A program made the position numbers and the translations under genes. Shown in pieces: positions 15,234 to 30,535 of a DNA stretch of 64,000 bases. This DNA comes from a virus, in IMG/VR virus record IMGVR_UViG_3300028840_004184, positions 64,001 through 128,000 of that record; one strand, 5' to 3'. The notes below the pieces were generated by a model. The model was given only the letters and a program-made list of their open reading frames with translations, was not told the DNA's origin and searched no databases. Numbering within the stretch: the first letter of the stretch is position 1; every line of letters begins with the position of its first letter.

Positions 15234-15620
15234 GTGAGAAAAACATTTACACTTCGTGGTCTTAAGGGTAAATTGATTATGTCACAGAATACAATGGATG
15301 ATTTCGATAAACTTTTTCCTGGCTTATCAGAAAAGATATTTGAGCAGTTTTACGGTGATGCTGATCATGGTATATTAATATGGAATAGAGAACAATTAGA
15401 CAGAGAAGGTTTCAACCATACGTTTTGTGCTGAAATAATATTACATGGGCAACATATTTATGTAAGCTGTCAAGACGGAAATTGGAATGGATCAGAGATA
15501 CTGGATTTTGAATGTTGTAAATTAGATAATCATCAAGAAAATATATGTCCATATTGTGGTGGACAAATAGAAACAATTATTGGAAACTTTAAAATATGTC
15601 AAAAGTGTGAGGATTGTTAA
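15234..15620 (+). CDS. Hypothetical protein with C-terminal Zn ribbon
   Basis: CPYC...CQKC; ATG start probably at 15279. Confidence 0.6.
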   Translation: MRKTFTLRGLKGKLIMSQNTMDDFDKLFPGLSEKIFEQFYGDADHGILIWNREQLDREGFNHTFCAEIILHGQHIYVSCQDGNWNGSEILDFECCKLDNHQENICPYCGGQIETIIGNFKICQKCEDC

Positions 15621-15621
15621 T

Positions 15622-16902
15622 ATGAGAAATCTTGCTTCTATCCAGAAGATCAAAAGCCTTCAACCCATTGAAGGGGCTGATAAAATTGAAGTGGCTCGCG
15701 TTCTTGGTTGGGATGTTGTGGTAAAAAAGAATGAGTTTCAGCCTGGAGATCTCTGTGTCTATATTGAAATTGATTCTGTTCTACCATCGCGGGATGAGTT
15801 TAATTTTTTACTTAAGCTAACGGCTAAATGCTCTAATGACAATTGCCCAAATCGTTGGCAGGTTCCATATGATTTTAAGCTTATTGGTGGTCGTGTATAC
15901 TGCCCTAAGTGTGATAAGCTAAGCGAAGAGATCGAGGAGATTCCTGAAGTCAAGCAAGAAAAAATGAGACGTATTCGAACTATTAGGCTTCGCGGTCAGT
16001 TATCTCAGGGAATTGTTTTCCCATTGTCGATCTTGCCTAATAATGCCATGTGTTTTAAGAAAGATATGGTAGATACCGATGTTACTGAAGCCCTCGGTAT
16101 TAAGAAATATGAGCCCCCTATTGCTAGCGGCCCTGGTGGCCCCAATCGTAACAAGAGAACTAAGGGGAAGCGACCTATTTATGTACCACTGACTGACGAG
16201 ACCCGTGTACAGATCCTGGGTCCTGTTATCGAGAAATATCAAGGAACCGTGGGTTATATTAGTGAGAAACTGGACGGCTCTAGTTTCTCTGCTTCGCTCG
16301 TAGGAGGTAAGTACGAGGTATGTAGCCGGAATATGAATTTGGCAAAGCCCGGACTTCCTTGGTTACGCAGGTTATTGAATTGGTACTGGCAGTTGCGAAA
16401 CCGACAAGAAATGGTCCGTCATCCCGAAAGGGTAGACGCCTGGTGGTCTGTGGCCAATACTCTTGGTTTAAAAGAACGCATGCAAAAGTACTGTAAAAAT
16501 CATGGAATAAGAAATATTGTTTTACAGGCAGAATTAATAGGACCTAGAGTACAAGGAAACAAATACGCACTAGATGATTACGACCTTTACGTTTTTCAAA
16601 TTTATAATCCCGACACTGATAGTTATTTTAGTTTTATTGATTTTATTAATGCTGTTGAAGAAATGGGACTTAAAACTGTGCCAATTTTGAATGATAATTA
16701 TATTCTCGGTGGTGACAGTGATACTTTACTTCAGGTGGCGAAGGGCGATAGTGTATTAAACCCTAAAATTCCAAGGGAAGGCATAGTCTTCCGTCCATTA
16801 AAAGAAGTCTTGGTTACTTCTGGTATCGGTAGTAAGTTGCATCGAAGTAGATTAAGTTTTAAGGCAATCAATAATGATTTTCTACTAAGATATGGTGAAT
16901 AA
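15622..16902 (+). CDS. ATP-dependent RNA ligase, DRB0094 family
   Basis: MRNLASIQKI..PIEGADKIE..VLGW.VVVKK..GDLCVYIEIDS; motif I EKLDGSS; QAELIGP, FQI, REGIVF, FKAINNDFLL. Confidence 0.92.
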   Translation: MRNLASIQKIKSLQPIEGADKIEVARVLGWDVVVKKNEFQPGDLCVYIEIDSVLPSRDEFNFLLKLTAKCSNDNCPNRWQVPYDFKLIGGRVYCPKCDKLSEEIEEIPEVKQEKMRRIRTIRLRGQLSQGIVFPLSILPNNAMCFKKDMVDTDVTEALGIKKYEPPIASGPGGPNRNKRTKGKRPIYVPLTDETRVQILGPVIEKYQGTVGYISEKLDGSSFSASLVGGKYEVCSRNMNLAKPGLPWLRRLLNWYWQLRNRQEMVRHPERVDAWWSVANTLGLKERMQKYCKNHGIRNIVLQAELIGPRVQGNKYALDDYDLYVFQIYNPDTDSYFSFIDFINAVEEMGLKTVPILNDNYILGGDSDTLLQVAKGDSVLNPKIPREGIVFRPLKEVLVTSGIGSKLHRSRLSFKAINNDFLLRYGE

Positions 16903-17479: not shown

Positions 17480-17522
17480 AAAATTTAAAGGAAAAAAATA
17501 ACTAACGAAGAGGGGGAAAACA

Positions 17523-17747
17523 ATGACAGCCAGCAGTTTCACCGTGAACTGTTTTCAATCGACGGCGACTAATGCCACCAAGTGTTCAAAATGTCACAGG
17601 CAATTGAAGAATAGTGAAAACTGCTGGGTTATTCAGTGCTGTATGTTTGACGAACGTATTTTTTCCTATTGGATCAATAATTATTGTTCAAGCAACCATA
17701 AAGTTTGTAAACAATGTATTGATGAAATACGGGATATATTTCAATAA
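17523..17747 (+). CDS. Small Zn-finger protein
   Basis: CxxC pairs, SD. Confidence 0.55.
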   Translation: MTASSFTVNCFQSTATNATKCSKCHRQLKNSENCWVIQCCMFDERIFSYWINNYCSSNHKVCKQCIDEIRDIFQ

Positions 17748-18097
17748 TGATTTACAATCATAGATGCCGTGTGTGTCCTAAATTTGTGTCTAGGGGTAAA
17801 AAATTCTGTAGCCCGAAGTGTGCGACAAAGTTTTATGCCTCGGGGGCTCTTAAGGAAAAAAGACAGCGGCTTGCAGCTAACGCAAGAAGAAACTTATCGG
17901 CAGCTACGAAAGCGTATTTCGCAAGATTATGTAGTAAAGAAGAGAGATTCTTCTGGAAAGAGCGACGATGTTCGAAATGTGGAGCAAGCGGTAAACGTAT
18001 GCATGTTATTCTTAAGAAGCCGTTCTGGCAAGGTGGACAATATACACCAGATAATATAAGATATTATTGTAGTAATTGTAATAAATGTAGTGTATAA
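17747..18097 (+). CDS. Degenerate HNH-like Zn-binding protein
   Basis: FCSPKC; CSKC...H...GG....NI...CSNCN. Confidence 0.55.
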   Translation: MIYNHRCRVCPKFVSRGKKFCSPKCATKFYASGALKEKRQRLAANARRNLSAATKAYFARLCSKEERFFWKERRCSKCGASGKRMHVILKKPFWQGGQYTPDNIRYYCSNCNKCSV

Positions 18098-18106
18098 TAG
18101 ATGAAT

Positions 18107-18179
18107 AGCGGGGAGGATGGGTATCCCGGCAGGGCTCATATCCCTGTTCTTGCAGGCTCGACTCCTGCCCCCGCTACCA
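18107..18179 (+). tRNA. tRNA-Met(CAT), initiator-like
   Basis: AGCGGGG/CCCCGCT acceptor, ACCA end, three G-C pairs in the anticodon stem, atypical D arm. Confidence 0.8.
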
Positions 18180-18240
18180 TAAATATTTTCTCCTTAGGGA
18201 GTTGTGTTCTCTGCCTATGGCAGATAATCTAAAAAGGTTT

Positions 18241-18274
18241 CCGCTGAACCCGCCTGGCGAATCAGCGGTTTTTT
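18241..18274 (+). terminator. Intrinsic terminator
   Basis: CCGCTGA...TCAGCGG followed by T6. Confidence 0.6.
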
Positions 18275-18278
18275 ATTT

Positions 18279-18355
18279 GGACCCGTAGCTCAGTTGGTGA
18301 GAGCACTCGCCTCATAAGCGATAGGTCCTTGGTTCAAGTCCAAGCGGGTCCACCA
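18279..18355 (+). tRNA. tRNA-Ile2/Met(CAT)
   Basis: Full cloverleaf, CAT anticodon, encoded CCA; body resembles lysidine-type tRNA-Ile2. Confidence 0.9.
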
Positions 18356-18444
18356 CCTCAAACGGCAATAGCCTTAGTTTTACATTGGAGTATGAATTAA
18401 TGCATTTACCAGTTGGATAAGACTTATTAAGGACATAAAACATA

Positions 18445-18660
18445 ATGAGTGAAGAACTAATACGCAAGATAGAGGAAGAGTGGGATCAGCCGCAACCAAT
18501 GCAGTGCCCGGATTGTGGAAATTTTGTCATGGTTTCTCCAGAAGATTTGCTGGTACCAGTTGAGGATTTGTGTGAATGCTGCTTCAGATATAATGAAGAA
18601 TGTATCAGAGAACACGAAACTATGCACAGCGACCGACTATTCGACGATGATTTATGGTAA
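18445..18660 (+). CDS. Small acidic Zn-binding protein
   Basis: AAGGA SD, CxxC pairs. Confidence 0.6.
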   Translation: MSEELIRKIEEEWDQPQPMQCPDCGNFVMVSPEDLLVPVEDLCECCFRYNEECIREHETMHSDRLFDDDLW

Positions 18661-18678
18661 TTTTTTCGAAAAAATAAC

Positions 18679-18707
18679 TTGACTTTTCGTAAGGTTTAGA
18701 GTATTAT
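18679..18707 (+). promoter_or_regulatory. Sigma70-type promoter upstream of the attenuator/tRNA array
   Basis: TTGACT-N17-TATTAT. Confidence 0.7.
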
Positions 18708-18830
18708 ATATATACACGGGGTTATTCCCGATCTTACTATAGTTTGTGGGATTGTGACAGTTTGACTCAATTCCACTAAATAGTAGAACACGCATATAGC
18801 GTAGTTATTTCATAGGTTATGGAGAATAAA

Positions 18831-18911
18831 ATGTTTCTCGCAGAGCGACCATCTAGTTTGTCACATTTATGGACACCGGCATACGGCATCGAAGGAGCCG
18901 ATACGGGATAG
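18831..18911 (+). CDS. Putative 26-aa attenuator leader peptide MFLAERPSSLSHLWTPAYGIEGADTG
   Basis: GGAG SD; stop codon abuts the antiterminator strand. Confidence 0.65.
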   Translation: MFLAERPSSLSHLWTPAYGIEGADTG

Positions 18912-18985
18912 CTGAGGGTCTGCTTATAACACATTTTTTAACACAATATACAGACCCTCAGGAGAAAAACTTCTGAGGGTTTTTT
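18912..18985 (+). promoter_or_regulatory. Transcription attenuator (mutually exclusive antiterminator/terminator)
   Basis: CTGAGGGTCTG (18912-22) pairs with CAGACCCTCAG (18951-61), which overlaps the terminator ACCCTCAGGAG/CTTCTGAGGGT + T tract. Confidence 0.75.
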
Positions 18986-19063
18986 AATGTTCAGTCGCCG
19001 AAGGGCTCACAAAAAAGTAGCTTTAAGATTAGCCGAATGGATTCAAGATATTTATAAATAAGT

Positions 19064-19137
19064 GCGTGGATGGTGTAGTGATAGCATCTGTGATTCCAAC
19101 TCATAGGGCCAGGGTTTGATTCCTTGTCTGCGTGCCA
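19064..19137 (+). tRNA. tRNA-Trp(CCA)
   Basis: Cloverleaf, loop TTCCAAC, G73, CCA. Confidence 0.85.
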
Positions 19138-19161
19138 ATTTTTATTGAGATATTTTATAAC

Positions 19162-19238
19162 GGGGGTGTAGTTCAGGTAGTTAGAACGCCAGCCTGTCAC
19201 GTTGGAGGTCGAGGGTGCGATGCCCTTCATCCCCGCCA
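19162..19238 (+). tRNA. tRNA-Asp(GTC)
   Basis: Cloverleaf, loop CTGTCAC, GCCA end. Confidence 0.92.
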
Positions 19239-19284
19239 CTTATTTCTTTGTTATGGAGGAATGAGCCTTAAATGAACGATATAT

Positions 19285-19359
19285 GGGCGAATAGTGTTAA
19301 CGGGAGCATACTAGATTTGCACTCTAGGGGTTGGGGTTCAACTCCCCATTTGTCCACCA
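19285..19359 (+). tRNA. tRNA-Ala(TGC)
   Basis: Loop TTTGCAC, G3-U70 identity pair, ACCA. Confidence 0.9.
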
Positions 19360-19446
19360 ACACTCAGTCGCCGTGGGGCTTTGATAAAAAATATTGCTCT
19401 TAGGCGAAAAAATAGATTGACAAATAAGAAAGATGTAGTATGATTA

Positions 19447-19522
19447 CTAGGGTTAACTCAGTTTGGTAGAGTACTGGCCTTGGACGCCAGGAGCGTAGGT
19501 TCAAATCCTACACCTTAGACCA
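19447..19522 (+). tRNA. tRNA-Pro(TGG)
   Basis: Cloverleaf, loop CTTGGAC, ACCA. Confidence 0.9.
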
Positions 19523-19531
19523 AAATTATTC

Positions 19532-19639
19532 TTCCTTGCTGGGTCGTCTAATATGGTAGGACGCCAGTGACTCCTGTGGGGCGGAGCCTGCTCCGTAAAC
19601 TGGAAATGGTGGTTCGATTCCACCACCGTCATGGAGGAA
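19532..19639 (+). ncRNA. tRNA-like RNA with a 30-nt structured anticodon loop, no CCA
   Basis: D arm GTCT-AATATGGT-AGGAC, CCAGT/ACTGG stem, T arm GGTGG-TTCGATT-CCACC. Confidence 0.55.
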
Positions 19640-19659
19640 TCTTTTAAGCTTAAGTTATA

Positions 19660-20199
19660 TTGTATTGGATTTGTGTTATGATATATTTAAGTGAAAAGCA
19701 ACGAAAAAACAAACGCATTATATTAGAGGAAATCAAACCTGTTGATTGTCAGGTGTGTTTTTTCCATGACGTATCTCATTTGCCGTTTAGTGGTTATCCT
19801 ATGCGTTCGAGTTATTATGATGAAATTAATAAGATAGCTTTCGTGTATACGGCTGAAGCGACCAACCGTCATATTTTGTATTCGTTACTACATGAGGTAT
19901 GTCATCACATTACATGGGACAAGAGATGGGATAGGCGTAAGTTTAGACGAGATGAATGGGGGGAGTGGAGACCTAGCCATCCTACATATTATTTGCGAGA
20001 ATATAAAGCAGAGAAGTTATTGCGAAAAATATGTAGACGATATGGATGGCATGAATTACTACAAGAGTCGGATATGTTATTAACAAAACATTTATTAAAT
20101 AAAACAAAAGATACTGAAAGACAATATACATATTCTTGTAAACGTATAGTAAGAGAAGAAAAACGAGACATAGCTCAGATGGTTAGAGCGTTCGGCTGA
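19660..20199 (+). CDS. HExxH zinc-metallopeptidase-like protein
   Basis: SLLHEVCHH...REYKAE; 3' end overlaps tRNA-Ile. Confidence 0.65.
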   Translation: MYWICVMIYLSEKQRKNKRIILEEIKPVDCQVCFFHDVSHLPFSGYPMRSSYYDEINKIAFVYTAEATNRHILYSLLHEVCHHITWDKRWDRRKFRRDEWGEWRPSHPTYYLREYKAEKLLRKICRRYGWHELLQESDMLLTKHLLNKTKDTERQYTYSCKRIVREEKRDIAQMVRAFG

Positions 20200-20240
20200 T
20201 AACCGAAAGGGCGTAGGTTCAATTCCTACTGTCTCGACCA
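20164..20240 (+). tRNA. tRNA-Ile(GAT)
   Basis: Canonical cloverleaf, ACCA. Confidence 0.93.
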
Positions 20241-20275
20241 ACACTCAAGCGGCGTGGGCCTTATGGAGAAAATAG

Positions 20276-21055
20276 ATGATAAGAAAGTGTGATAAATGCG
20301 GATCTAACCTTGTTGAGTTGATTACATCGTGGGTTTGCCCTAACAGTTGCAACAAGGTGGACACCCCCTTGAAATCCCCCGGTGACTGGGGATCCGAAAT
20401 AGAACGTGACACCTTCTACCAGGACTTGCTTAAGGAGCAATGCAAAAACTGCGTCAACGAAGGAGATCATGATAATTGTTGTGGCAACGCTTGTGATGAA
20501 ATACCGTGTCCTGGATTTGAGAAAATGCCTGTAAAGAAGTCTATTACAGAACAGTCAATGATGCAACCAGTAGATATAACACAAAGCGGTTGTTTGAGTG
20601 GGCTAAAGAAGCCGCAGACAAAAATGTCATTAAAACAAGATCTCCATAAGCGGCAAGAAGATAAGTCCGCGTCGCTCTGTTCGATGGGTGTTTGGCGATG
20701 TGGATGTGGTAAGTTTCCTATACTCAAAAGCGAACCGGATGAAGAGGGAGATTTATTTTGGTTTTCATGTTGTGATATAGTTTCTTTTAATACGTCAGAT
20801 CTTAAATTGGCAGTTTTGCGATGGAATAATCTCCTTAAGCAGAAGGAGGGGTGGGAAAGACTAGGTGAAGTAGATCACATCGAAATAAACGATGGAAATA
20901 AAATTGTTATACATACTAAAAAGAACAATTTTCATATGAATGAGGATCAAATAATAAGTGATATGTCGGAAAAAGATTGTCCAAATAGTATAAAAAACAT
21001 ATTTCTTTATTATCAACAAAAGCATAATATATATAGATTTGAAATTATACCATGA
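20276..21055 (+). CDS. Multi-Zn-ribbon protein (LITS tag + internal Lar-like segment)
   Basis: CDKCGSNLVELITSWVC; CGCG...FSCC...AVLRWN. Confidence 0.65.
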   Translation: MIRKCDKCGSNLVELITSWVCPNSCNKVDTPLKSPGDWGSEIERDTFYQDLLKEQCKNCVNEGDHDNCCGNACDEIPCPGFEKMPVKKSITEQSMMQPVDITQSGCLSGLKKPQTKMSLKQDLHKRQEDKSASLCSMGVWRCGCGKFPILKSEPDEEGDLFWFSCCDIVSFNTSDLKLAVLRWNNLLKQKEGWERLGEVDHIEINDGNKIVIHTKKNNFHMNEDQIISDMSEKDCPNSIKNIFLYYQQKHNIYRFEIIP

Positions 21056-21141
21056 GTCGAACATATAAAGATACTAAAAGGCGTAGAGATGAAGCAGACG
21101 CACAGAAACAGATAAACGAATATAATCCCGAGCGGGAATAA

Positions 21142-21414
21142 TTGCTGCTTTGCAGCACTAAAATGTTAAATATTTACCGAGCGGTAATATCTAGTTGTTT
21201 TTATTATCATAAACACAAATGTATTATATGTGATGAGATTAATATAGTGGCCGTGCATCATTTTGATTTTAATAATAAAAATAATGAACCGGATAATTTA
21301 ATACCAATGTGCCCAACGCATCATCAATATATGCATAGTAGATTTAGGGAACTAATAGATAAAAAAGTTATTGAATATAGGCAGAGCTTCTTAAAGAAAT
21401 TTCGGAGCACATAA
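21142..21414 (+). CDS. HNH endonuclease fragment, probably truncated
   Basis: CIIC...VHHFDFNNKNNEPDNLIPMCPTHH; weak TTG start, no N-terminal domain. Confidence 0.6.
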   Translation: MLLCSTKMLNIYRAVISSCFYYHKHKCIICDEINIVAVHHFDFNNKNNEPDNLIPMCPTHHQYMHSRFRELIDKKVIEYRQSFLKKFRST

Positions 21415-21417
21415 AAA

Positions 21418-21639
21418 ATGGGAATGTATGATGAAATCAAGGTGCCTTGTCCTGAATGTGGTACAATTCATCTTGCCCAATCTAAGGGCGGCGATTGTAC
21501 ACTGGCACTTTATACGTTAAACGAAGCACCGACAGACGTATTACTTGATGTAAACAGACATGGTCCATTCCAATGTGAAAGGTGCTGTACAAGATTTGCT
21601 GTTAAAATACATTGTGTAGCTCAGGTTGTAAAAGAATAA
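21418..21639 (+). CDS. Small Zn-ribbon protein
   Basis: MGMYDEI..CPECG...QSK pattern. Confidence 0.7.
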   Translation: MGMYDEIKVPCPECGTIHLAQSKGGDCTLALYTLNEAPTDVLLDVNRHGPFQCERCCTRFAVKIHCVAQVVKE

Positions 21640-21656
21640 TTTGCGTAGCAATAGCA

Positions 21657-21730
21657 GGACATATCGTATAATGGTATTATGTGTGGCTTACATCCACAAG
21701 ACGGTGGTTCGATTCCATCTATGTCCACCA
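21657..21730 (+). tRNA. tRNA-Val(TAC)
   Basis: Cloverleaf, loop CTTACAT, ACCA. Confidence 0.9.
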
Positions 21731-21767
21731 ATGCTCAATCGCCGCAAGGCTTGTTAAGGATATTATT

Positions 21768-21944
21768 ATGAAAACAAAATTAAAAATTGTGATTGAATAT
21801 GAAGCAGATCCCGAGGATTATGATACCGAAGATCCAAAGAAAATGGCTGAAATTGATGAGAGTAATTTTAGAGAAGACCCACCATCTTTGATGGAAATGT
21901 TATGTGATTTAGAAGATATTAAAGTTAAAGTGGAGCCAGCATAG
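21768..21944 (+). CDS. Small acidic protein
   Basis: AAGGA SD; ATG downstream of tRNA-Val. Confidence 0.65.
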   Translation: MKTKLKIVIEYEADPEDYDTEDPKKMAEIDESNFREDPPSLMEMLCDLEDIKVKVEPA

Positions 21945-21946
21945 TC

Positions 21947-22405
21947 ATGCAAACTTTTCTCCCGTACCGCGACTTTGAAAAATCGGCTAAATGTCTCGAT
22001 TATCGTCGGCTCGGTAAACAAAGAGTTGAGGCAAAACAGATCCTTAATGTTCTCCTGGGAAGGACAAATAAAAAGGGTTGGCGTAATCATCCATGCGTGA
22101 CAATGTGGCGTGATTATGAACTTGCTTTACAAGAATATTATAATATGATTCTGAAAGAATGGATAAGGCGTGGATATAAAAATAATATGGAATTTGAGTA
22201 TACTTCATATTATAAACATGGTATACTGAGGGTATATCAAGAACCATATACTAATCCTTATTATTGTAAGCCAGAATGGCTCAATAAGACATTCTGTGCC
22301 TCTCATCGTTCTAATCTGCTCCGTAAAGATCCTGAGTGGTATGGACGATTTGAGTGGGAAGAACCAAATAATTTACCGTACATTTGGCCCATTCAGTCAG
22401 CGTGA
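21947..22405 (+). CDS. Pyrimidine-dimer DNA glycosylase-like protein (MSMEG_6728 family, DenV-related)
   Basis: MQTFLPY.DF..SA..LD.RRLGKQRVEA.QI, GW.NHP...MW, SHRSNLLRKDP.WY, LPY.WP. Confidence 0.9.
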   Translation: MQTFLPYRDFEKSAKCLDYRRLGKQRVEAKQILNVLLGRTNKKGWRNHPCVTMWRDYELALQEYYNMILKEWIRRGYKNNMEFEYTSYYKHGILRVYQEPYTNPYYCKPEWLNKTFCASHRSNLLRKDPEWYGRFEWEEPNNLPYIWPIQSA

Positions 22406-22430
22406 GCCTTTTTTGTTTATGGAGTAAAAT

Positions 22431-22625
22431 ATGATTGATCCCCAAATTAAAGAATGGATCGACGGTGCTAATATTGAAATGTTGTTGAGGAAATGGAGGT
22501 TCGCAAGGTCTGGTGATCCATATTTCCAAGGAGAAGCCGGAAAGTATTATTCTGAAGTTATGGCCAAGAAACGAAATGAAGACCCGGCGGCTTATACTCG
22601 GGCTAGCAAGAATATTGGATGGTAA
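22431..22625 (+). CDS. Small conserved phage protein
   Basis: 'LLRKWRFA..GDP.FQGE.G.Y...ASK.IGW'; GGAG SD. Confidence 0.7.
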   Translation: MIDPQIKEWIDGANIEMLLRKWRFARSGDPYFQGEAGKYYSEVMAKKRNEDPAAYTRASKNIGW

Positions 22626-22649
22626 TAAGTTATTTTTGGAGACAATGAA

Positions 22650-23114
22650 ATGAAAACTACGGCTATAGTAACCCTGGCGATATTTATGTTCATAATAGGA
22701 TACGGAGCCTTACATTGTATTATGATAGAACGGGTGAAAGATAATGCAGTTGAAGACTATCGTAGATCGGCGGGTATGATAAGTTTTGATGATGAAGGTC
22801 CTAAGAAAACGGCATGTAAATGGGGCTGGGATATGGAGGCTGATCTTATCGAGACTCCTCATGGTAATCACAAGTTGATACTTAATGCAACTATTACCAA
22901 AGAACCCTGTGGAGAGCCCACGTTCACATTTTTTGTCTTTTTCTTTGGTTCTGATAATCAGATACTAGGGACTAGGAAAATTGTACGTCCTTGTGATAGT
23001 CCTGTGCAGTTATGGATTCCACGAAACACAGCGTATATACTAGTTTGCGGTGAGGGTAAATGTGGTAAATGCGGAAGCGAAGTGTTGAATGCGGCATTGT
23101 TGGAAATAGAATAA
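22650..23114 (+). CDS. Membrane-anchored/exported beta-rich protein
   Basis: N-terminal TM, Cys pairs. Confidence 0.65.
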   Translation: MKTTAIVTLAIFMFIIGYGALHCIMIERVKDNAVEDYRRSAGMISFDDEGPKKTACKWGWDMEADLIETPHGNHKLILNATITKEPCGEPTFTFFVFFFGSDNQILGTRKIVRPCDSPVQLWIPRNTAYILVCGEGKCGKCGSEVLNAALLEIE

Positions 23115-23120
23115 TCAAGA

Positions 23121-23197
23121 GTTGACCATGGTGTAGATAGTTAACATATCGGATTGTGACTCCGGGGTCAGCGGGGCGGAACCGCTTGGTCAACCCA
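23121..23197 (+). tRNA. tRNA-His(GTG)
   Basis: Encoded G-1:C73, loop TTGTGAC, CCA. Confidence 0.88.
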
Positions 23198-23236
23198 CAT
23201 AACTTCGTTATGAAGAAAGTCGTAGTTTAAAAATTG

Positions 23237-23329
23237 GGAGGGTTGTCGGAGCGGTCAATCGAGGCGGATTTGAAATCCGTTGGTCAGTTTAAAGCTGGCA
23301 CGGGGGTTCGAATCCCTCACCCTCCTCCA
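23237..23329 (+). tRNA. tRNA-Ser(TGA)
   Basis: Long variable arm, loop TTTGAAA, CCA. Confidence 0.92.
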
Positions 23330-23342
23330 AACTTTAAATAAA

Positions 23343-23433
23343 AGTCCATGGCGAAGTGGCAGACGTGTTATTTCATGGTGGGCGTCGGGAGCCGTTAACC
23401 GATAGCTGTTGGTTCGAATCCAGCCCATGGACT
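23343..23433 (+). ncRNA. tRNA-like RNA without a canonical anticodon arm
   Basis: 9-bp AGTCCATGG/CCATGGACT closing stem, D-like GGCGAAGTGGCAGACG, T arm GTTGG-TTCGAAT-CCAGC. Confidence 0.55.
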
Positions 23434-23456
23434 GTTTTTAAAATGGATAACTTCCC

Positions 23457-23756
23457 ATGGATGATAAAATAAAAATACTAAGATGGTGGAATAAAAATGA
23501 AGCCGAAGTAATAAAAGAATACCATATTGCTGTACGGGTTACAAGAACTAAATCTGGTAAACGACATAGGTATGATGTATGTGCTCAAGACGATGATCCG
23601 AACTTAGCGGGGTGGAATTTTATTAGTATATATCTTCCTCACGATCAGGATGAAGAGGCGAAAAAGAAAGCTATTGAAAAAATTAAAGGCATGGTTCGGT
23701 GTGGTTCTCCTGACATACATATGATAAGAAATGATATCGAGGAACATAAATCATGA
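23457..23756 (+). CDS. Hypothetical protein
   Basis: ORF in operon. Confidence 0.6.
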   Translation: MDDKIKILRWWNKNEAEVIKEYHIAVRVTRTKSGKRHRYDVCAQDDDPNLAGWNFISIYLPHDQDEEAKKKAIEKIKGMVRCGSPDIHMIRNDIEEHKS

Positions 23757-23962
23757 AACCCAGCAAAAAATCTGAAGGTATTGAGGATTTCCTAGATCGT
23801 TTTGGCGAAGTCGCATACGGAAGAGGCCGTATAGAATCAATTGAAAATGATATCTGTATAAAATGTGGTCAACCAGCCAAAGTTTTTCGCGACGATCTTT
23901 CCCGTAGGGAATATACGATTTCTGGTCTTTGCCAAAAGTGTCAGGATAAGATATTTAAGTAG
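23753..23962 (+). CDS. Small Zn-binding phage protein
   Basis: 'C..CG....FRD.LS.REY.ISGLCQ.CQD.IF'. Confidence 0.75.
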   Translation: MKPSKKSEGIEDFLDRFGEVAYGRGRIESIENDICIKCGQPAKVFRDDLSRREYTISGLCQKCQDKIFK

Positions 23963-24048
23963 GGGTGGCGGAATAATAGACGCAGCCCGATTATGGGTGG
24001 CTATTTTGATCAAATAGTGTGTAGGTGTGAATCCTACCCTCTACACCA
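23959..24048 (+). tRNA. Leu-like class II tRNA with truncated (4-6 nt) anticodon loop
   Basis: GTAGGGG/CCTCTAC acceptor, A73-CCA, long variable arm, anticodon arm GCCCG-ATTA-TGGGT. Confidence 0.6.
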
Positions 24049-24082
24049 AAACTTAGACGCCGTTAGGCTTTGAAATAGAGAC

Positions 24083-24167
24083 GGGCGGGTACCCAAGCGG
24101 CAAAGGGGTGTGGCTGTAGACCACATGGCTAACGCCTACGTTGGTTCGAGTCCAACTCCGCCCACCA
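24083..24167 (+). tRNA. tRNA-Tyr(GTA)
   Basis: Class II cloverleaf, ACCA. Confidence 0.93.
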
Positions 24168-24180
24168 ACATAACTTCGTT

Positions 24181-24390
24181 ATGGAGAAAGAAAAAATGCG
24201 ACTAAGTGAGTTGATTAATGTATTACTAGAAGTACAGAGAGATTGTAAAAATGATCCCGATTATCCTGATGATCCCCCCGTAGAGATTTGTCAAGCAATT
24301 AGTACAAATATAGGATCGGTAGAGAGATCAAGATATTATAATCACAGGACGGACGGAAAAGATCCAATTGTTATGATACATGAAGCATGA
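24181..24390 (+). CDS. Small hypothetical protein
   Basis: ORF after tRNA-Tyr; start may be the second ATG. Confidence 0.55.
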   Translation: MEKEKMRLSELINVLLEVQRDCKNDPDYPDDPPVEICQAISTNIGSVERSRYYNHRTDGKDPIVMIHEA

Positions 24391-24407
24391 AGGTCGATAA
24401 ACATAGT

Positions 24408-24493
24408 GGCTCCGTGGGGGAAATTAGCAGACCCGTATCGCTTAAGACGATATGCCCTAGGGCGTTCCAGTGCAAGTCTGGACGGAGCTACCA
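24408..24493 (+). tRNA. tRNA-Leu(TAA)
   Basis: Class II cloverleaf, loop CTTAAGA, ACCA. Confidence 0.88.
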
Positions 24494-24534
24494 AAACATA
24501 AATACCGCTACAGACTTTTGCGGAGCATATACTA

Positions 24535-25155
24535 ATGGGAATGTCACGATCAGAAGCTGGTAAGCTTGGTGCTAAGAAAGTTAATCCGGCACAAAGACAA
24601 AGAGCGATAAACAAATACTACAAAAGTCCATCTATTTGTAAATATTGTGGTAAAGTTATACGAATCAAAAATAAGGAAAAAGCATCTTATGTTAAAAGAA
24701 AGAAATTTTGTAATAGATCATGTTTAATGAGATACATAAACGCGTTACATGTTCGGCAAAGCGATAAACGAAATTGTTTACAATGCGACAAGGTAATACC
24801 AGCGAGACAGAAATACTGCTCTTTGAAATGTCAGCAATTATATAAAAAAATAAAAAGATTCAACGATATAGACGAAAGACAAGATGCTGATGGGTATGGT
24901 AATAAAACTATTAAGTCATATTTGTTATATAAATATGGTTATAAATGCTCTATATGTAATAATACTGTGTGGATGGACAAACAAATCCCCTTAGTTATGG
25001 ACCACGTAGATGGTAATCCATACAATAATAAGATCAATAACTTAAGGCTGGTCTGTGGTAACTGTGATATGCAGTTACCAACGTATAAGTCAAAAAATAG
25101 AGGAAGTGGTCGTCATTATAGACGACTAAGATATAAACAAGACAAAAGCTATTAG
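24535..25155 (+). CDS. HNH homing endonuclease in the tRNA array
   Basis: FCNRSC/YCSLKC repeats; MDHVDGNPYNNKINNLRLVCGNC. Confidence 0.88.
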   Translation: MGMSRSEAGKLGAKKVNPAQRQRAINKYYKSPSICKYCGKVIRIKNKEKASYVKRKKFCNRSCLMRYINALHVRQSDKRNCLQCDKVIPARQKYCSLKCQQLYKKIKRFNDIDERQDADGYGNKTIKSYLLYKYGYKCSICNNTVWMDKQIPLVMDHVDGNPYNNKINNLRLVCGNCDMQLPTYKSKNRGSGRHYRRLRYKQDKSY

Positions 25156-25228
25156 CCTGCATAGTTTAATGGTAAAACCTCGGTTTTGTAATCCGAATTT
25201 CGGCGTTCGATTCGTCGTGCAGGCTCCA
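25155..25228 (+). tRNA. tRNA-Thr(TGT)
   Basis: Cloverleaf, loop TTTGTAA, TCCA. Confidence 0.88.
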
Positions 25229-25258
25229 TGTATTTTTCTTTGTTATGGAGGTGTTAAA

Positions 25259-25465
25259 ATGGTTAACTTCAGTAACGTAAGGGATGTCGGCAGAATTCTT
25301 GCTCTTAGAGAGAGAGCATACCGCAGGTCTAATCGTGAAAAATCATTACAGCCTCGTCATAGCAAACATTGGTGTCCGTCTTGTGACGGAGCTATAATTG
25401 GTGCTGGTAGCAAATGTCCTAGATGTGGAAAGCGTATTTCGCCGAGACGGCTGAAAAAGGAATAA
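25259..25465 (+). CDS. Small basic Zn-ribbon protein
   Basis: GGAGGT SD; CPSC...CPRC. Confidence 0.65.
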   Translation: MVNFSNVRDVGRILALRERAYRRSNREKSLQPRHSKHWCPSCDGAIIGAGSKCPRCGKRISPRRLKKE

Positions 25466-25488
25466 TGCTACGCAGGCTAAAATTTTAC

Positions 25489-25579
25489 GGAAGGGTGGCC
25501 GAGTTGGCTTATGGCACCGTCCTGCTAAGGCGGAGGGGTATAATAGCCCCCGCAAGTTCGAATCTTGTCCCTTCCTCCA
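25489..25579 (+). tRNA. tRNA-Ser(GCT)
   Basis: Class II cloverleaf, CCA. Confidence 0.92.
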
Positions 25580-25608
25580 TGCTCAATCGCCGCAAGGCTT
25601 ACAGTTGA

Positions 25609-25790
25609 TCTTTGAATATTTATAAGCAAGAGGACTAGGGGCGAGAATCCGTATAATTCAATTCTTAGCCAGGACGTTCGGAGCATGTAAAATGCAGCAC
25701 CGCCTAGTATGAGTTTGCGGATACATATACAGCAACTCTGGTGATAGTTGCTCTGTGAAATCTAACAGAAAAGGCCGTAATATTCAAAGA
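25609..25790 (+). ncRNA. Candidate structured ncRNA (~180 nt)
   Basis: Perfect 12-bp closing stem TCTTTGAATATT/AATATTCAAAGA; internal ACTAGG/CCTAGT and AGCAACT/AGTTGCT helices. Confidence 0.5.
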
Positions 25791-25822
25791 CTTGATTAAT
25801 TTTAACTAAGGAGCAATTTATC

Positions 25823-26209
25823 ATGTTTAACTTTCTAATTTATCTGTTGATTACATTTAGTTCTTTTATAATGCAAGATCCTGGGCCTGGTCCGCAGGTT
25901 TGTGTACTGGAGGGGTGTATTGATCTTGTCACTGTTGATTATGGTGATGGACTATACGGCCTTGAAGTCTATTCAAGGGGTAGTTCCAGCTTGAATCACG
26001 GGGTCTCTATGGAGATTTATTGGTATGTTTTTGACATGTTCGGGAAACTTGTGGGGCTTGGTCGTGATCTTATTCCGTATTGGTATGACGAGAGAGAATT
26101 AATCCCTTTGGTGGCTGGTCAACACGTATATATCGAACTAAGAGTGATTTGTTGGAAATGTAAGATCGATACGTGGGCTTATGCGGATACTAAGATACCT
26201 CCATTTTAA
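25823..26209 (+). CDS. Exported beta-rich protein
   Basis: Signal peptide, AAGGAG SD, C-terminal CxxC. Confidence 0.7.
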   Translation: MFNFLIYLLITFSSFIMQDPGPGPQVCVLEGCIDLVTVDYGDGLYGLEVYSRGSSSLNHGVSMEIYWYVFDMFGKLVGLGRDLIPYWYDERELIPLVAGQHVYIELRVICWKCKIDTWAYADTKIPPF

Positions 26210-26274
26210 ACTCAGGTGGCGTTGGCCTTATATTGTATTGTTTTAAAGGCACAAAAAATTGTGCGTAGCACAAT

Positions 26275-26361
26275 GGCATCCTGGCGAAATGGCAGACGCG
26301 GTAGGTTCAAAACCTGCTACCACGTAGTGGTGTCCCGGTTCAAGTCCGGGGGGTGCCACCA
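26275..26361 (+). tRNA. tRNA-Leu(CAA)
   Basis: Class II cloverleaf, ACCA. Confidence 0.92.
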
Positions 26362-26399
26362 TATTCAGTTGCCGCAGGGCTTAGAAAAGGAAAGATAAC

Positions 26400-26555
26400 A
26401 TGAGTGAAGATGAAATAGTCGAATGTCCCGAGTGTGGTTTTCAGCAGCTAGATCCTGGTAAAGGAGTTGCTTGTGAAGAATGCGGACATTATCCCCTTGT
26501 TTCTCTTAAGGAGATCGAGAAGCAGGACAAAGAGTGGAGAAAAGGCAATGGCTAG
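26400..26555 (+). CDS. 51-aa Zn-ribbon protein (below the ORF-track cutoff)
   Basis: MSEDEIVECPECG...CEECG, AAGGA SD. Confidence 0.55.
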   Translation: MSEDEIVECPECGFQQLDPGKGVACEECGHYPLVSLKEIEKQDKEWRKGNG

Positions 26556-26745
26556 ATGTAATTATTGCAATTTTGTAAGTATTAGAGAAGAGCATAAGAA
26601 TAGTGATAAGACGGTGACTTTAACACCAGACAATCACGTATATGTACACCCTAAAGAGATTATTATTGCTGATTTGTCAAAGGAGGAAAGGGAAAAATAC
26701 TTTGTGGCCTGGTTTATGGAGTTGCCTAATTATTGTTGTTGCTAA
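26548..26745 (+). CDS. Small Cys-containing protein
   Basis: GGAG SD, MARCNYC. Confidence 0.6.
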   Translation: MARCNYCNFVSIREEHKNSDKTVTLTPDNHVYVHPKEIIIADLSKEEREKYFVAWFMELPNYCCC

Positions 26746-26746
26746 A

Positions 26747-26823
26747 GCGGGTGTAGTTTAGTCGAATAGAACACCTCGCTACGAACGAGGAGGTCGGGGG
26801 TTTAAGTCCTCCCACCCGCACCA
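26747..26823 (+). tRNA. tRNA-Arg(ACG)
   Basis: Cloverleaf, loop CTACGAA, ACCA. Confidence 0.9.
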
Positions 26824-26832
26824 TTGAAGCTC

Positions 26833-26930
26833 GATAAGAGATTGTCAGAGCCCGTTGTACAGGCTTGATTCGGTGGACGTGGTGACCGAATGACTATGAT
26901 ACAAGGAAGCAACCTTGCAGTTATCTTATC
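26833..26930 (+). ncRNA. Candidate four-way-junction RNA between tRNAs
   Basis: GATAAGA/TCTTATC closing stem with three hairpins. Confidence 0.45.
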
Positions 26931-26951
26931 CATACAGCATTATTTTTATGT

Positions 26952-27036
26952 GGGAGAGTGGCGTAACTGGTAGCCGCGTATGGTTTAGGACCATATGTCG
27001 AAAGGCGTGCAGGTTCGAGTCCTGTCTCTCCTACCA
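26952..27036 (+). tRNA. tRNA-Leu(TAG)
   Basis: Class II cloverleaf, ACCA. Confidence 0.93.
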
Positions 27037-27078
27037 ACACTCATGCTTCGCTGGCGTGGGCCTTATTAGGGGTATATT

Positions 27079-27300
27079 ATGACCAGGAAAGAATTTAGTG
27101 AAGTGCTTCGTGATTTATCTCCCGTTGTTTACGATGGTATGTTGGCTGGGGGTATGTCGCTGCCTAAAATAGCACAGGCTGTTGCCCTGGACTGTTTTTT
27201 ATATAGGTCGGGAGAAGTAGACAGTATTATGCAGAGAACACTGCGTGGGTATTTACAAAACCTAGATAAGACTGGCGTCTTTGGATTTGATAAAGAATAG
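27079..27300 (+). CDS. Hypothetical protein
   Basis: SD + ORF. Confidence 0.6.
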   Translation: MTRKEFSEVLRDLSPVVYDGMLAGGMSLPKIAQAVALDCFLYRSGEVDSIMQRTLRGYLQNLDKTGVFGFDKE

Positions 27301-27301
27301 A

Positions 27302-27375
27302 GAGGCTATGGTGTAGTGGTAACACGTCAGGTTTTCAGCCTGAGGTCGAGAGTTCGATTCTCTCTAGCCTTACCA
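27302..27375 (+). tRNA. tRNA-Glu(TTC)
   Basis: Cloverleaf, loop TTTTCAG, ACCA. Confidence 0.9.
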
Positions 27376-27396
27376 ACTTAAGAAGAATATGATATA

Positions 27397-28011
27397 ATGA
27401 GAATTCCTGATATTTTGATAAAAGATCTTAATAGCCTAAGTCCAGGCAATCGTGTTTTGAGATTAAGGGGATTGTCGTCATATTATCGAAACCCAAGATA
27501 TTGTTTGTTTTGTAACAAAGTTATTAATGCTGTACCTGGAGTACGTCTTGCACGCACAAAGGCAAAAAAGTTTTGTAACCAAAGATGTGCTGCATTATAC
27601 AATAATAAGCGTAAGCTGTCTAATGAGTGTTTGTATTGTGGTAAATCAATATATAAGTATCGTAAATACTGTTCTCATAAGTGTGTTCAAGAGCATAAAT
27701 ATAGAACATATATCGGTAAATGGCTTAGCGGTAAAGTAAGTGGTATAAAAGGCAAGGACAGCATATCTAATTATATCAGACGTTGGTTAATTGATAAATA
27801 TAACAATCGATGCGTTAAGTGTGGATGGAGTGTAAAAAATAGATATACGAATAAAGTCCCTCTACAAATTAATCACATCGATGGTAATTGGAAAAACAAC
27901 AAGTCCGAGAATTTAGAGCTTGTATGTCCTAATTGTCATTCATTAACACCTAATTATGGTGGTAGAAATAAAGGAAAAGGACGACCATATAGGTATAAAA
28001 TGCGAGTATAA
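27397..28011 (+). CDS. HNH homing endonuclease in the tRNA array
   Basis: FCNQRC/YCSHKC; LQINHIDGNWKNNKSENLELVCPNCHS. Confidence 0.9.
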   Translation: MRIPDILIKDLNSLSPGNRVLRLRGLSSYYRNPRYCLFCNKVINAVPGVRLARTKAKKFCNQRCAALYNNKRKLSNECLYCGKSIYKYRKYCSHKCVQEHKYRTYIGKWLSGKVSGIKGKDSISNYIRRWLIDKYNNRCVKCGWSVKNRYTNKVPLQINHIDGNWKNNKSENLELVCPNCHSLTPNYGGRNKGKGRPYRYKMRV

Positions 28012-28075
28012 TTCAATGGTAGAAAGTCACCCTTCCAAGGTGGATATGCCGGTTCGAATCCGGCTACTCGCTCCA
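28002..28075 (+). tRNA. tRNA-Gly(TCC)
   Basis: Cloverleaf, U73-CCA. Confidence 0.92.
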
Positions 28076-28116
28076 TACTGCTCAATCGCCGCAGGGCTTG
28101 CTTTTTAAGGAAGAAT

Positions 28117-28371
28117 ATGGTGGAAAATAAACCGAGTTATCTCTGGGTGTGTGATCAATGTCGTGAGAAAGATTGGGAAACCCTGACTATTGGCAGATTA
28201 ATTGATGACCGGGTGTGCAAGTGGTGTGGTAGGGGTGGCGTTAATACATCTGCTGTTTCGTTTGATAAACTTATTGGTACTCATGCTATGAATTATATTT
28301 CTAAGAGAAATGATATTGGGGGTGGTTCATGTGGCGAAGAAGAGAAAAGAGAGGGTAATAAAGCTGGCTAA
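28117..28371 (+). CDS. Small Zn-binding protein
   Basis: CxxC pairs, SD. Confidence 0.6.
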   Translation: MVENKPSYLWVCDQCREKDWETLTIGRLIDDRVCKWCGRGGVNTSAVSFDKLIGTHAMNYISKRNDIGGGSCGEEEKREGNKAG

Positions 28372-28525
28372 GGAATTGTGGAAAGATAAGATAGAGCAAA
28401 TGTCTGACCAGGAATTTGTAAATTTCCTTAAGATGAATTCGCCATGTGAAAATAAAAGCAAAAAAGGATTTGACATTCTCCGAAAATAGGATAAGCTTGA
28501 CTAAAAACTCTTAGGGATTATCTGG

Positions 28526-28909
28526 ATGGAAATTAATGAACGTGTTGTAGGCATGTTAGAACAATCAGCACAAAAACTTAACATTACCGCAGAGCATCTT
28601 TGGGGTGCTCTTGTTGCCCAAGCTCCTATTCAGGGCTTAGTGAACTGTTGTTATCTTTTTTTGTTTTTAATATCATCTATCTTATGTCTTAGAATGGCTT
28701 TTAAGTTTAGCGTAAAGGGTCGATGGGGTCCTAACGATCCATGTACCAAAACCGAGGCCATCACTGTTATATATGGCATTTTATGTTGTATATCGGTTCT
28801 TTGGGGGCTGGTAATGATGTATCGCCTGCCCATGTCTATCGGTGCTATTGTTAATCCTGATTATTGGGCTCTCAATGAATTAGCCACAATACTTGGTGTA
28901 TCTAAATAA
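28526..28909 (+). CDS. Two-TM membrane protein
   Basis: 'AEHLWGALVAQA...NPDYWAL' phage membrane-protein pattern. Confidence 0.75.
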   Translation: MEINERVVGMLEQSAQKLNITAEHLWGALVAQAPIQGLVNCCYLFLFLISSILCLRMAFKFSVKGRWGPNDPCTKTEAITVIYGILCCISVLWGLVMMYRLPMSIGAIVNPDYWALNELATILGVSK

Positions 28910-28920
28910 GGAGTGTATTC

Positions 28921-29676
28921 ATGAGAGGTGATTATGGTTCCATGGGATGTAATTTAGGTAAATCATCTGGGGCGGAACGATGGGTGTTTATTTGTCTTAT
29001 AGTCGCCGTCTGTCTTGTCACCGTAGTATCGGGTCTATGGAGTGCTTTTGCTGATGAACCCGTTATACGGCAGACGGGTGCTCCTCAAGATACAGAAGAA
29101 GAGACTGGTGGCTGTCCCGTTAGTATAGAAGTTAATGTTTATGAGGAAGATGGCAGTCTGTATTATTGGGTGAAGACAGCAGAAGGATGTGGCGAAACAG
29201 TTTTTGAAATTTCGTTTACATACTGTGTAAGTATTGGTGGAGTATTCTCTGTAACCCATAGGATATATGGAGATATAGAGGACTCTTTTTTAATCGACTC
29301 CGCTGATCTTAAGCTACTCACCATCGTAGGTAATGCGGTTGATGAGGAAAGACATCAAAGCGTTGATTATGATGTGTGGGTTTCTCCTTCTCATACGGAG
29401 AGCCTACTTAATATTGCCGTTAATGTATGGCATATGAAGTTCAGTGTTTTTTATTCTGCTGATATCACAAAGGACACATCACCAGCCAGGTTCAGTATAA
29501 GTATAACTACGGTATTAAAAGGTGGTGGTATAGCTACTTATTCATCGCCGATCCATCGTGATTGGCCGCATGTTCCCACTGATAACTATGTCGATTTGGC
29601 ATTGTCCAGTATAGTCGGCGAAGCCATAGACCAACAAGGACACCATAAACTCGACCATGATATGTGGAAGGAGTAA
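28921..29676 (+). CDS. Membrane-anchored protein with two similar beta domains
   Basis: TM; internal repeat TIVGNAVDEERHQSVDYDVW / SIVGEAIDQQGHHKLDHDMW. Confidence 0.7.
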   Translation: MRGDYGSMGCNLGKSSGAERWVFICLIVAVCLVTVVSGLWSAFADEPVIRQTGAPQDTEEETGGCPVSIEVNVYEEDGSLYYWVKTAEGCGETVFEISFTYCVSIGGVFSVTHRIYGDIEDSFLIDSADLKLLTIVGNAVDEERHQSVDYDVWVSPSHTESLLNIAVNVWHMKFSVFYSADITKDTSPARFSISITTVLKGGGIATYSSPIHRDWPHVPTDNYVDLALSSIVGEAIDQQGHHKLDHDMWKE

Positions 29677-30133: not shown

Positions 30134-30202
30134 GGGGCGATGTTGAAGTACATTATCAACTTATTGTCAACTTATCCTAAATTTTATTGACAACTTCATG
30201 GG

Positions 30203-30260
30203 GCAAGTAAGCGACTATCATTATAGGGCTTGCCGCGAGTAAGCCCGTCTCATTATAGGG
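30203..30260 (+). repeat. GCRAGTAAG-N-TATAG repeat cluster 1 (2 copies)
   Basis: Copies at 30203 and 30235. Confidence 0.7.
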
Positions 30261-30404
30261 TCTCTTTGCCGCTATATTCTTCGGTTATGGAGCAGCCCCA
30301 CATGTCGAAGAACATTTACTCCTGTCGAAATGACAGGTTTTTCCTGCCAATTTGTCGAAACGCAAATACTACCTATTTTTTGCGTCAAAAAAATATTTTT
30401 CAAC

Positions 30405-30432
30405 TTGACAACACCATTTCGCGATGTATAAT
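30405..30432 (+). promoter_or_regulatory. Sigma70-type promoter
   Basis: TTGACA-N16-TATAAT. Confidence 0.75.
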
Positions 30433-30535
30433 AAGGTAACTTCGAAAGAAAAAGGAAGCTGAGTTTTCCTTACTCTTTTTAGGCAAAATAGTTATGTGAG
30501 TGTACCATTCTTTCATGGATTGTCAAGGAGTTTTT

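Follow-up and report, generated by a model that had tools for sequence, protein, structure and literature searches.

We found a putative attenuator at the head of the main tRNA operon of an uncultured marine phage in the IMG/VR collection (record IMGVR_UViG_3300028840_004184; 170,410 bp with direct terminal repeats). The stretch of DNA analyzed, hereafter the window, is 64,000 nucleotides (nt) long and corresponds to bases 64001-128000 of this record; coordinates refer to the window unless they are given as genome positions. The element comprises a promoter, a 26-codon leader open reading frame (ORF), and four RNA strands with alternative pairings. It stands before an array of 17 tRNA genes (19064-28075, plus strand) that are interspersed with HNH-endonuclease and other ORFs. 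Based on RNA folding models and the codon content of the leader, we favor with reasonable confidence the view that the element is a ribosome-mediated attenuator of the trp/his type, and that its leader serves as a census of the array's own tRNAs. Under this model, the 17-tRNA array would probably be transcribed more when ribosomes read the leader codons slowly.

Organization of the Leader and Its Hairpins

An original prediction, made by a model from the sequence alone, had described a promoter, a Shine-Dalgarno (SD) sequence, a 26-codon ORF, an 11-nt strand directly after the stop codon, a strong terminator, and 17 tRNA genes in this region, and we found all of these features where it had placed them. 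The leader promoter P18679 (18668-18707, plus strand) is of the sigma-70 type and matches 10 of the 12 consensus positions. It has an A-rich upstream sequence (GAAAAAATAAC), a -35 hexamer TTGACT (18679-18684), a 17-nt spacer, and a -10 hexamer TATTAT (18702-18707); transcription is inferred to start near 18714-18716. The 5' untranslated region (UTR; 18715-18818, plus strand) is ~104 nt long, contains three hairpins in the predicted fold, and matched no Rfam family. The ribosome-binding region (18813-18830, plus strand; TAGGTTATGGAGAATAAA) carries GGAG at 18821-18824, 6 nt before the ATG at 18831, and a GGAG-to-start spacing of 5-11 nt is typical of the genes of this phage. The TAGGTTATGGAG context at the leader start also precedes other start codons, such as that of a 129-aa gene at 46514.

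The leader ORF (18831-18911, plus strand; MFLAERPSSLSHLWTPAYGIEGADTG) starts 124 nt 3' of the -10 hexamer, before the first structural gene, and consists of 26 sense codons followed by TAG (18909-18911). An in-frame ATG at 18819 would extend the peptide by MENK. Four strands, all on the plus strand, define the alternative structures. Strand 1 (18843-18856) lies within codons 5-9 of the ORF and pairs with strand 2 in untranslated RNA, adding -8.9 kcal/mol. Strand 2 (18912-18925) begins at the base after the stop codon, and its first 11 nt, CTGAGGGTCTG (18912-18922), form the 5' half of the antiterminator. Strand 3 (18951-18964) is common to the antiterminator and the 5' arm of the terminator. 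Strand 4 (18970-18985) contains the 3' arm of the terminator (18970-18982) and a run of six T residues (18980-18985).

The two hairpins have similar stabilities. In the antiterminator, CTGAGGGTCTG is perfectly complementary to CAGACCCTCAG (18951-18961) over 11 bp, with a folding energy of -20.5 kcal/mol. The terminator has a 13-bp stem (18952-18964 with 18970-18982), a 5-nt loop, and the T6 run, with an energy of -19.8 kcal/mol, and is located between the leader ORF and the tRNA genes, 79 nt before tRNA-Trp. The chance expectation of an 11-nt perfect complement within 140 nt is ~3e-5. We also scanned the whole genome for terminator hairpins whose 5' arm has a perfect complement of at least 9 nt no more than 140 nt upstream. 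Among ~40 distinct terminator-like hairpins in 170 kb, only the one in the leader has such a complement. The 276-nt leader as a whole has a folding z-score of -4.8 relative to shuffled sequences.

Predicted Folding With and Without a Ribosome

To follow the effect of translation in a thermodynamic model, a ribosome was set at each codon and only the RNA 3' of it was folded. For the whole leader, the terminator state (-46.4 kcal/mol) was compared with the antiterminator state (-43.0 kcal/mol). In the free RNA, strand 2 pairs with strand 1 and the terminator is formed, with P(terminator) = 0.97. The predicted P(antiterminator) is 0.91-0.99 when codons 3-15 or 19-23 occupy the A site, and it dips to ~0.3-0.5 near codons 15-18 (~0.4-0.5 at codons 16-18). 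The outcome is intermediate at codon 24. With the A site at codons 25, 26, or the stop codon, P(terminator) is 0.93-0.97. The pattern is robust to the position assumed for the ribosome 3' edge (+10 to +16 nt).

These results bear on two claims of the original prediction. Its OFF state, in which a ribosome at the stop codon covers the antiterminator strand, is reproduced by the model, where the terminator is then predicted to form with a probability of at least 0.93. Its ON state, which had been expected for a stall anywhere in the leader, is reproduced for approximately codons 3-23, with the dip at codons 16-18. It does not extend to codons 25 and 26, at which termination is predicted.

Correspondence Between Leader Codons and the tRNA Array

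The 24 tRNA genes of the phage fall into two clusters. The main cluster contains 19 genes on the plus strand (window 18107-28075), including the 17 located after the leader, namely, Trp, Asp, Ala, Pro, Ile, Val, His, Ser-tga, Tyr, Leu-taa, Thr, Ser-gct, Leu-caa, Arg-acg, Leu-tag, Glu, and Gly in this order. The second cluster consists of five genes (Arg-tct, Asn, Lys, Phe, and Gln) on the minus strand at genome ~146-147 kb. It is ~55 kb from the main array and directly behind a peptide-deformylase-like gene.

By strict wobble rules, 15 of the 17 downstream tRNAs have a cognate among the 25 codons that follow the ATG; Val-tac and Leu-tag do not. Under relaxed wobble, in which U34 reads all four codons of a box, 16 of the 17 tRNAs are covered and 24 of the 25 codons are readable by the array. 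Such coverage is rare in this genome. Real 25-codon windows of phage genes (n = 200,000) cover 8.2 tRNAs on average and 14 at most, with none reaching 15, and draws from the codon usage (n = 200,000) gave P(>=15) = 1.5e-4. No small ORF (sORF) from a six-frame translation (n = 1,461) exceeded 14, and the other five frames of the leader DNA cover 7-12. As noted in the original prediction, the leader is rich in different codons: 23 of the 25 after the ATG are distinct, and they specify 14 amino acids plus Met. However, none of 30,000 gene windows with at least 23 distinct codons reaches a coverage of 15, so codon diversity alone does not explain the match.

The match extends to the choice of individual codons. 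Exact Watson-Crick complements of the array anticodons make up 13 of the 25 leader codons, compared to an expectation of 24% (P = 0.0026), and include TAC and ATC, which are otherwise rare in the genes of this phage. The second cluster (Gln, Phe, Lys, Asn, and Arg-tct) reads one leader codon, compared to 5.6 expected (P = 0.014); this single codon is TTT at position 2, outside the predicted sensing window. Codons for Lys, Asn, and Gln are avoided in the leader, and none of its Arg codons is AGR. Because it contains no Lys codon, cleavage of tRNA-Lys, the target of PrrC, would not be sensed there. The last two leader codons, which also lie outside the sensing window, duplicate earlier Thr and Gly codons. 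It is this codon match that moves the element from an attenuator-like layout to a putative attenuator of tRNA genes. The original prediction had proposed a broad sensor of the tRNA pool. The sensor would, however, not be unspecific, since the codons match the array's own tRNAs (15-16 of 17, P < 1e-4).

Proposed Mechanism and Alternative Explanations

In the proposed mechanism, the host RNA polymerase would start at P18679, and a ribosome would load on the strong SD and ATG of the leader. When decoding is quick, the ribosome would reach the TAG at 18909 with its 3' edge over strand 2, strands 3 and 4 would form the terminator, and transcription would stop at 18985 (OFF). When the A site waits at any of approximately codons 3-23 for a tRNA that is scarce, uncharged, or cleaved, strand 1 would be covered or out of reach. 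Strand 2 could then pair with strand 3 over 11 bp, no terminator would form, and the polymerase would enter Trp-Asp-Ala-Pro and the rest of the array (ON). If the leader is not translated, strands 1 and 2 would pair and the terminator would form (OFF). Translation of the leader, coupling between polymerase and ribosome, and the cause of tRNA scarcity are the parts of this scheme that we infer; candidate causes are host defenses that cleave tRNAs or, early in infection, a host tRNA pool poorly suited to the codon usage of the phage.

The array encodes the very tRNAs whose shortage would stall the ribosome, which would make the circuit a negative feedback. The phage tRNAs would relieve the stall and thereby feed back on the decoding capacity for the codon families that the array supplies. 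Whether a shortage or cleavage of any of ~15 tRNA species turns on the whole replacement set, as an undescribed feedback control of tRNA genes, appears to us evenly balanced. The tRNA census could also act as an automatic counter-measure to host immunity that targets tRNAs.

The last possibility leads to a first alternative, in which the mechanism is the same and its natural trigger is specifically the action of host anticodon nucleases, not routine feedback between supply and demand. Sensors based on single codons would suit the catastrophic loss of one tRNA species, an RNA ligase gene adjoins the array, and an RtcB-type ligase is also encoded. Moreover, phage tRNAs are known to rescue infection from tRNA-cleaving defenses (PMC11464382, PMC12445682). 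On the other hand, Lys, the target in the PARIS paper, is missing from the leader, and tRNA-Lys, a known nuclease target (PMC11464382), belongs to the other cluster. Cleavage and simple scarcity also look alike at the level of the sequence. We regard this narrower trigger as possible, although unlikely.

A second alternative is that the hairpin is an ordinary intrinsic terminator that ends a short early transcript or shields the array from transcription entering from upstream, with the sORF and the complementary strand being coincidental and the array being transcribed from other promoters. One candidate for such a promoter is P19417 (19406-19444, plus strand; GAAAAAATAGA-TTGACA-16 nt-TATGAT), which matches 11 of the 12 consensus positions and has the same upstream context as P18679. 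Consistent with this explanation, the family-level relatives described below and phage T5 run their arrays without such a leader. However, as the -10 hexamer of P19417 ends 2 nt ahead of tRNA-Pro, transcription from it is predicted to start within the acceptor stem. Such transcripts should be missing the 5' end of this tRNA, and attenuator-controlled transcripts from upstream should be the sole source of intact tRNA-Pro. For Trp, Asp, and Ala, no promoter-like site was found between 18990 and 19064. A coincidence would also have to account for an 11-nt perfect complement exactly at the stop codon, unique among ~40 terminators, and for the codon census (P < 1e-4). These points make an ordinary terminator improbable.

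A third alternative accepts the switch as real but as independent of translation, being controlled by an RNA-binding protein of the phage or host, a small RNA or tRNA that base-pairs with the leader, polymerase speed, or nucleoside triphosphate levels, with the 5' UTR as the sensor. The presence of a structured UTR of 104 nt before the ORF is compatible with this explanation, and the two states are nearly isoenergetic, such that any binder of strand 1 or 2 could flip them. However, no riboswitch, T-box, or other Rfam family was detected in the leader even at E <= 10. The competitor of strand 2 is located inside the ORF and the stop codon abuts strand 2, which is the geometry expected for control by a ribosome, and the codon match with the array would be left unexplained. 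We therefore consider a translation-independent switch quite improbable. Finally, it is highly implausible that the 26-residue peptide is itself the product, as a small phage protein whose gene has a promoter and a terminator of its own, the RNA alternatives being incidental: the SD and ATG are good and very small proteins occur among the tRNA genes of many phages (several in T5), but the peptide has no hydrophobic or otherwise recognizable character, its codon diversity is maximal, the antiterminator strand sits at its stop codon, and the match to the array is at the level of codons, beyond amino-acid composition.

Observations Against an Attenuator and Distribution of the Cassette

Several observations weigh against an attenuator that senses tRNAs. 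When only strands 1-3 exist, the equilibrium already favors the 2:3 pairing; the default without translation would therefore depend on kinetics, as in classical attenuators. The codon match is incomplete, with no leader codon for Val-tac and a match to Leu-tag that requires U34 to read CUC. Only one or two codons correspond to each tRNA, compared to the codon runs of classical attenuators, and a single hungry codon may stall the ribosome too briefly unless depletion is severe. The hypothesis of a codon match was formed and tested on the same data, although the sORF was fixed beforehand by its position, so no search across many ORFs lies behind these statistics. In addition, P19417 probably fires, and the 13 distal tRNAs could be made from it with no involvement of the leader. 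Because this promoter can feed the distal array, certain gating by the attenuator, if it operates as proposed, would be limited to Trp, Asp, Ala, and intact Pro; for the remaining tRNAs, it would add to a basal level. The distribution of the cassette points in the same direction. No close relative was found in the phage records, IMG/VR, or the protein collections searched, and the combination of sORF, terminator, and antiterminator was missing from all 11 family-level relatives. In phage T5, small ORFs occur among the tRNA genes and no attenuator was found, and four other large phages (G002, G003, G004, and G005) have no comparable cassette.

The original prediction had suggested looking for the same layout before other phage tRNA arrays, and it was absent from the 11 relatives, T5, and the four large phages. 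Given that the cassette is missing from the relatives examined, the device is not general, even within the family. The 11 family-level relatives, all from IMG/VR, have terminases that are 43-48% identical, genomes of 137-183 kb, and 8-28 tRNA genes in similarly dispersed arrays; none has an sORF with an outlying codon census. Among 50,697 phage records, blastn with the leader and with the surrounding 4 kb found tRNA genes only, and terminase comparisons aimed at cultured relatives found none that is close (best match no more than 26% identical). An exact-pattern scan of IMG/VR for the antiterminator/terminator pair returned nothing. No related loci were found for the 71-aa upstream ORF or for DnaE, and the 179-aa ORF inside the array had no homologue at all. 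The RNA ligase has 24 related loci with no more than 38% identity and without synteny to tRNA arrays; its best relative among 5.8 billion proteins is 52% identical and lies on a 1.4-kb contig. Terminase relatives with 56-64% identity are known solely from Logan/ENA contigs; these stop a few kb upstream of the terminase gene, with the tRNA side unassembled.

Candidate leaders elsewhere were examined as well. In three related large phages, G002 (L063), G003 (L064), and G005 (L065), a second promoter is located immediately before tRNA-Thr or the array, and a conserved ORF of ~60 codons (MAYDPN...) that is rich in Gln, Asn, Thr, and Tyr lies within 300 nt upstream. This ORF, which follows a consensus promoter, was rejected as an attenuator because there is no terminator. 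G004 has only ordinary gene-end terminators. Before the second tRNA cluster of the phage studied here, genome positions 147838-147600 on the minus strand contain a second strong promoter (TTGACTTTTGG...TATAAT), the same ribosome-binding context (TAGGTTATGGAGAA), an sORF of ~38 codons, and a GC hairpin that lacks a T run. The 147838(-) promoter is upstream of the peptide-deformylase-like gene that runs straight into the second cluster, and a convergent promoter on the other strand overlaps this region. No convincing attenuator was found here; the sORF has no clear terminator and does not match Asn, Phe, or Gln.

Extent of the Transcription Unit and Repeated Motifs

In the genome-wide terminator scan, no strong plus-strand terminator was found between 18985 and 30321. 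Read-through from the leader can thus extend over the entire array of 17 tRNA genes and the ORFs interspersed with them. The next clear intrinsic terminator (30321-30344, plus strand) is likely the end of the transcription unit. The region after the array (30150-30440), in which this terminator is located, is dense in regulatory elements; it also contains a repeated CATTATAGGG box and another ribosome-binding context (GGTTATGGAG), and a consensus promoter (TTGACA-17-TATAAT) is present at ~30406-30434.

Promoters related to P18679 recur in the genome. The TTGACTTTT site occurs 12 times, including P18679, in most cases with a -10 hexamer at a distance of 17 +/- 1. The GAAAAAATANNTTGAC context upstream of P18679 is shared with three more good promoters, namely, P19417, P31186, and 13962(-). 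These define a subclass that combines the upstream element GAAAAAATANNTTGAC (18668, 19406, and 31186 on the plus strand; 13962 on the minus strand) with a good -10 hexamer 16-17 nt further on. In the metagenome run(s), a stretch of 52 nt in the promoter region (18669-18720) is matched, with five differences, by a separate contig of ~450 nt and low depth that may come from a related, otherwise unassembled phage.

Another repeated motif is a mini-hairpin, CTCARTYGCCG-NNR-GGCT(T), with a GCC/GGC stem and a GNRA-like loop (CTCARTYGCCGNNRGGCT class). One copy (18990-19010, plus strand) is located between the terminator and tRNA-Trp, 8 nt after the terminator. Plus-strand copies in the window are found at 18992, 19365, 21736, 25584, 26366, 28083, 33734, 38255, and 58522, and a single minus-strand copy is found at genome position 22532. 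The motif usually occurs right after the CCA end of a tRNA, 10-25 nt before an SD and start codon, and has no exact match elsewhere in IMG/VR. It may be a signal for RNA processing or stability. It is probably not a promoter itself, because a sigma-70 promoter comes after the copy at 19365.

Genomic Context and Source of the Phage

Two tRNA-Met(cat) genes (18107-18179 and 18279-18355, plus strand) lie 5' of the leader promoter and are therefore not part of the attenuated unit. Three G-C pairs adjoin the anticodon loop of the first, as is typical of initiator tRNAs; the second could be an elongator Met tRNA or a lysidine-modified Ile tRNA. The RNA ligase gene (window 15580-16902, plus strand; phrog_968, Pfam PF09414 and PF21189) is 1.8 kb 5' of the element. 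Close to the second tRNA cluster, a 769-aa protein (genome 142301-144610, minus strand) has a C-terminal match to RtcB-type tRNA ligases and a weak N-terminal match to PhoH-like proteins. The presence of two RNA-repair-type ligases near the tRNA clusters suggests a context of tRNA repair. Other proteins of the phage include a DnaE-type polymerase, a terminase, and a portal protein.

The stretch is present in DNA runs from a marine sediment and seawater metagenome, and lies on one assembly contig with zero differences in the DNA run(s) containing it. The two DNA entries, sediment and seawater, have identical contig sizes, by which they probably represent one data set and the source of the assembly, and so are not independent. 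All sequencing runs listed as containing the stretch are DNA runs, with no RNA run among them.

Comparison With Known Attenuators and Biological Implications

Known leader attenuators include the multivalent ones of ilvGMEDA (Ile/Leu/Val) and thr (Thr/Ile), as well as trpL, hisL, leuL, and pheL. The phage element shares with the enterobacterial systems a promoter-proximal leader ORF, four segments with 1:2, 2:3, and 3:4 alternatives, the blocking of segment 2 by a terminating ribosome, and a terminator that precedes the structural genes. The predicted responses are likewise the same, with read-through upon a stall at a hungry codon and termination without translation. However, the enterobacterial attenuators control biosynthetic enzymes, whereas the phage element controls tRNAs. 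The leader ORF has no tandem runs or clusters of one codon, unlike the trp, his, leu, phe, and thr leaders, and instead has approximately one codon for each of 15-16 tRNA species over a sensing window of ~21 codons. For lack of a run of one codon, we classify the element as a variant, not a plain member, of the leader-peptide attenuators. It also differs from the enterobacterial attenuators in being phage-encoded, and in that it would sense the availability of decoders with a product that directly repairs the deficit.

Two other systems provide useful comparisons. The pheST operon, with its pheM leader, is likewise a case of leader-peptide attenuation of a component of the translation apparatus, but one amino acid is sensed through a run of Phe codons and a synthetase is controlled, whereas the phage element controls tRNA genes. 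T-box riboswitches (RF00230) resemble the phage element in choosing between terminator and antiterminator to report tRNA status, and in acting on translation-related genes. However, a T-box binds one uncharged tRNA directly without a ribosome, and the phage leader has an ORF in place of the specifier loop. Rfam searches of 18650-19070 (E <= 10) and of 17500-29000 (E <= 1) gave no T-box match. The only Rfam family that scored on the element is His_leader (RF00514), with 26.9 bits over 18837-18988. This score is below the gathering threshold of 49 bits and arises from a similar terminator stem; the phage leader has no run of His codons, and His_leader was rejected as a homologue.

Transcription of tRNA genes is generally attributed to growth-rate and stringent control at promoters, and leader-peptide attenuation is textbook knowledge for amino-acid operons and one synthetase operon. 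Our literature search found no paper on leader-peptide attenuation of tRNA genes or of phage tRNA arrays. If the proposed mechanism is true, phages may gauge decoding capacity at the level of single codons and produce tRNAs when they are needed, which would help explain how large tRNA arrays impose a cost only when they are useful. It would further provide a mechanistic link between phage tRNA arrays and research on tRNA-cleaving defenses, and a compact, portable sensor for the depletion of any of many tRNAs.

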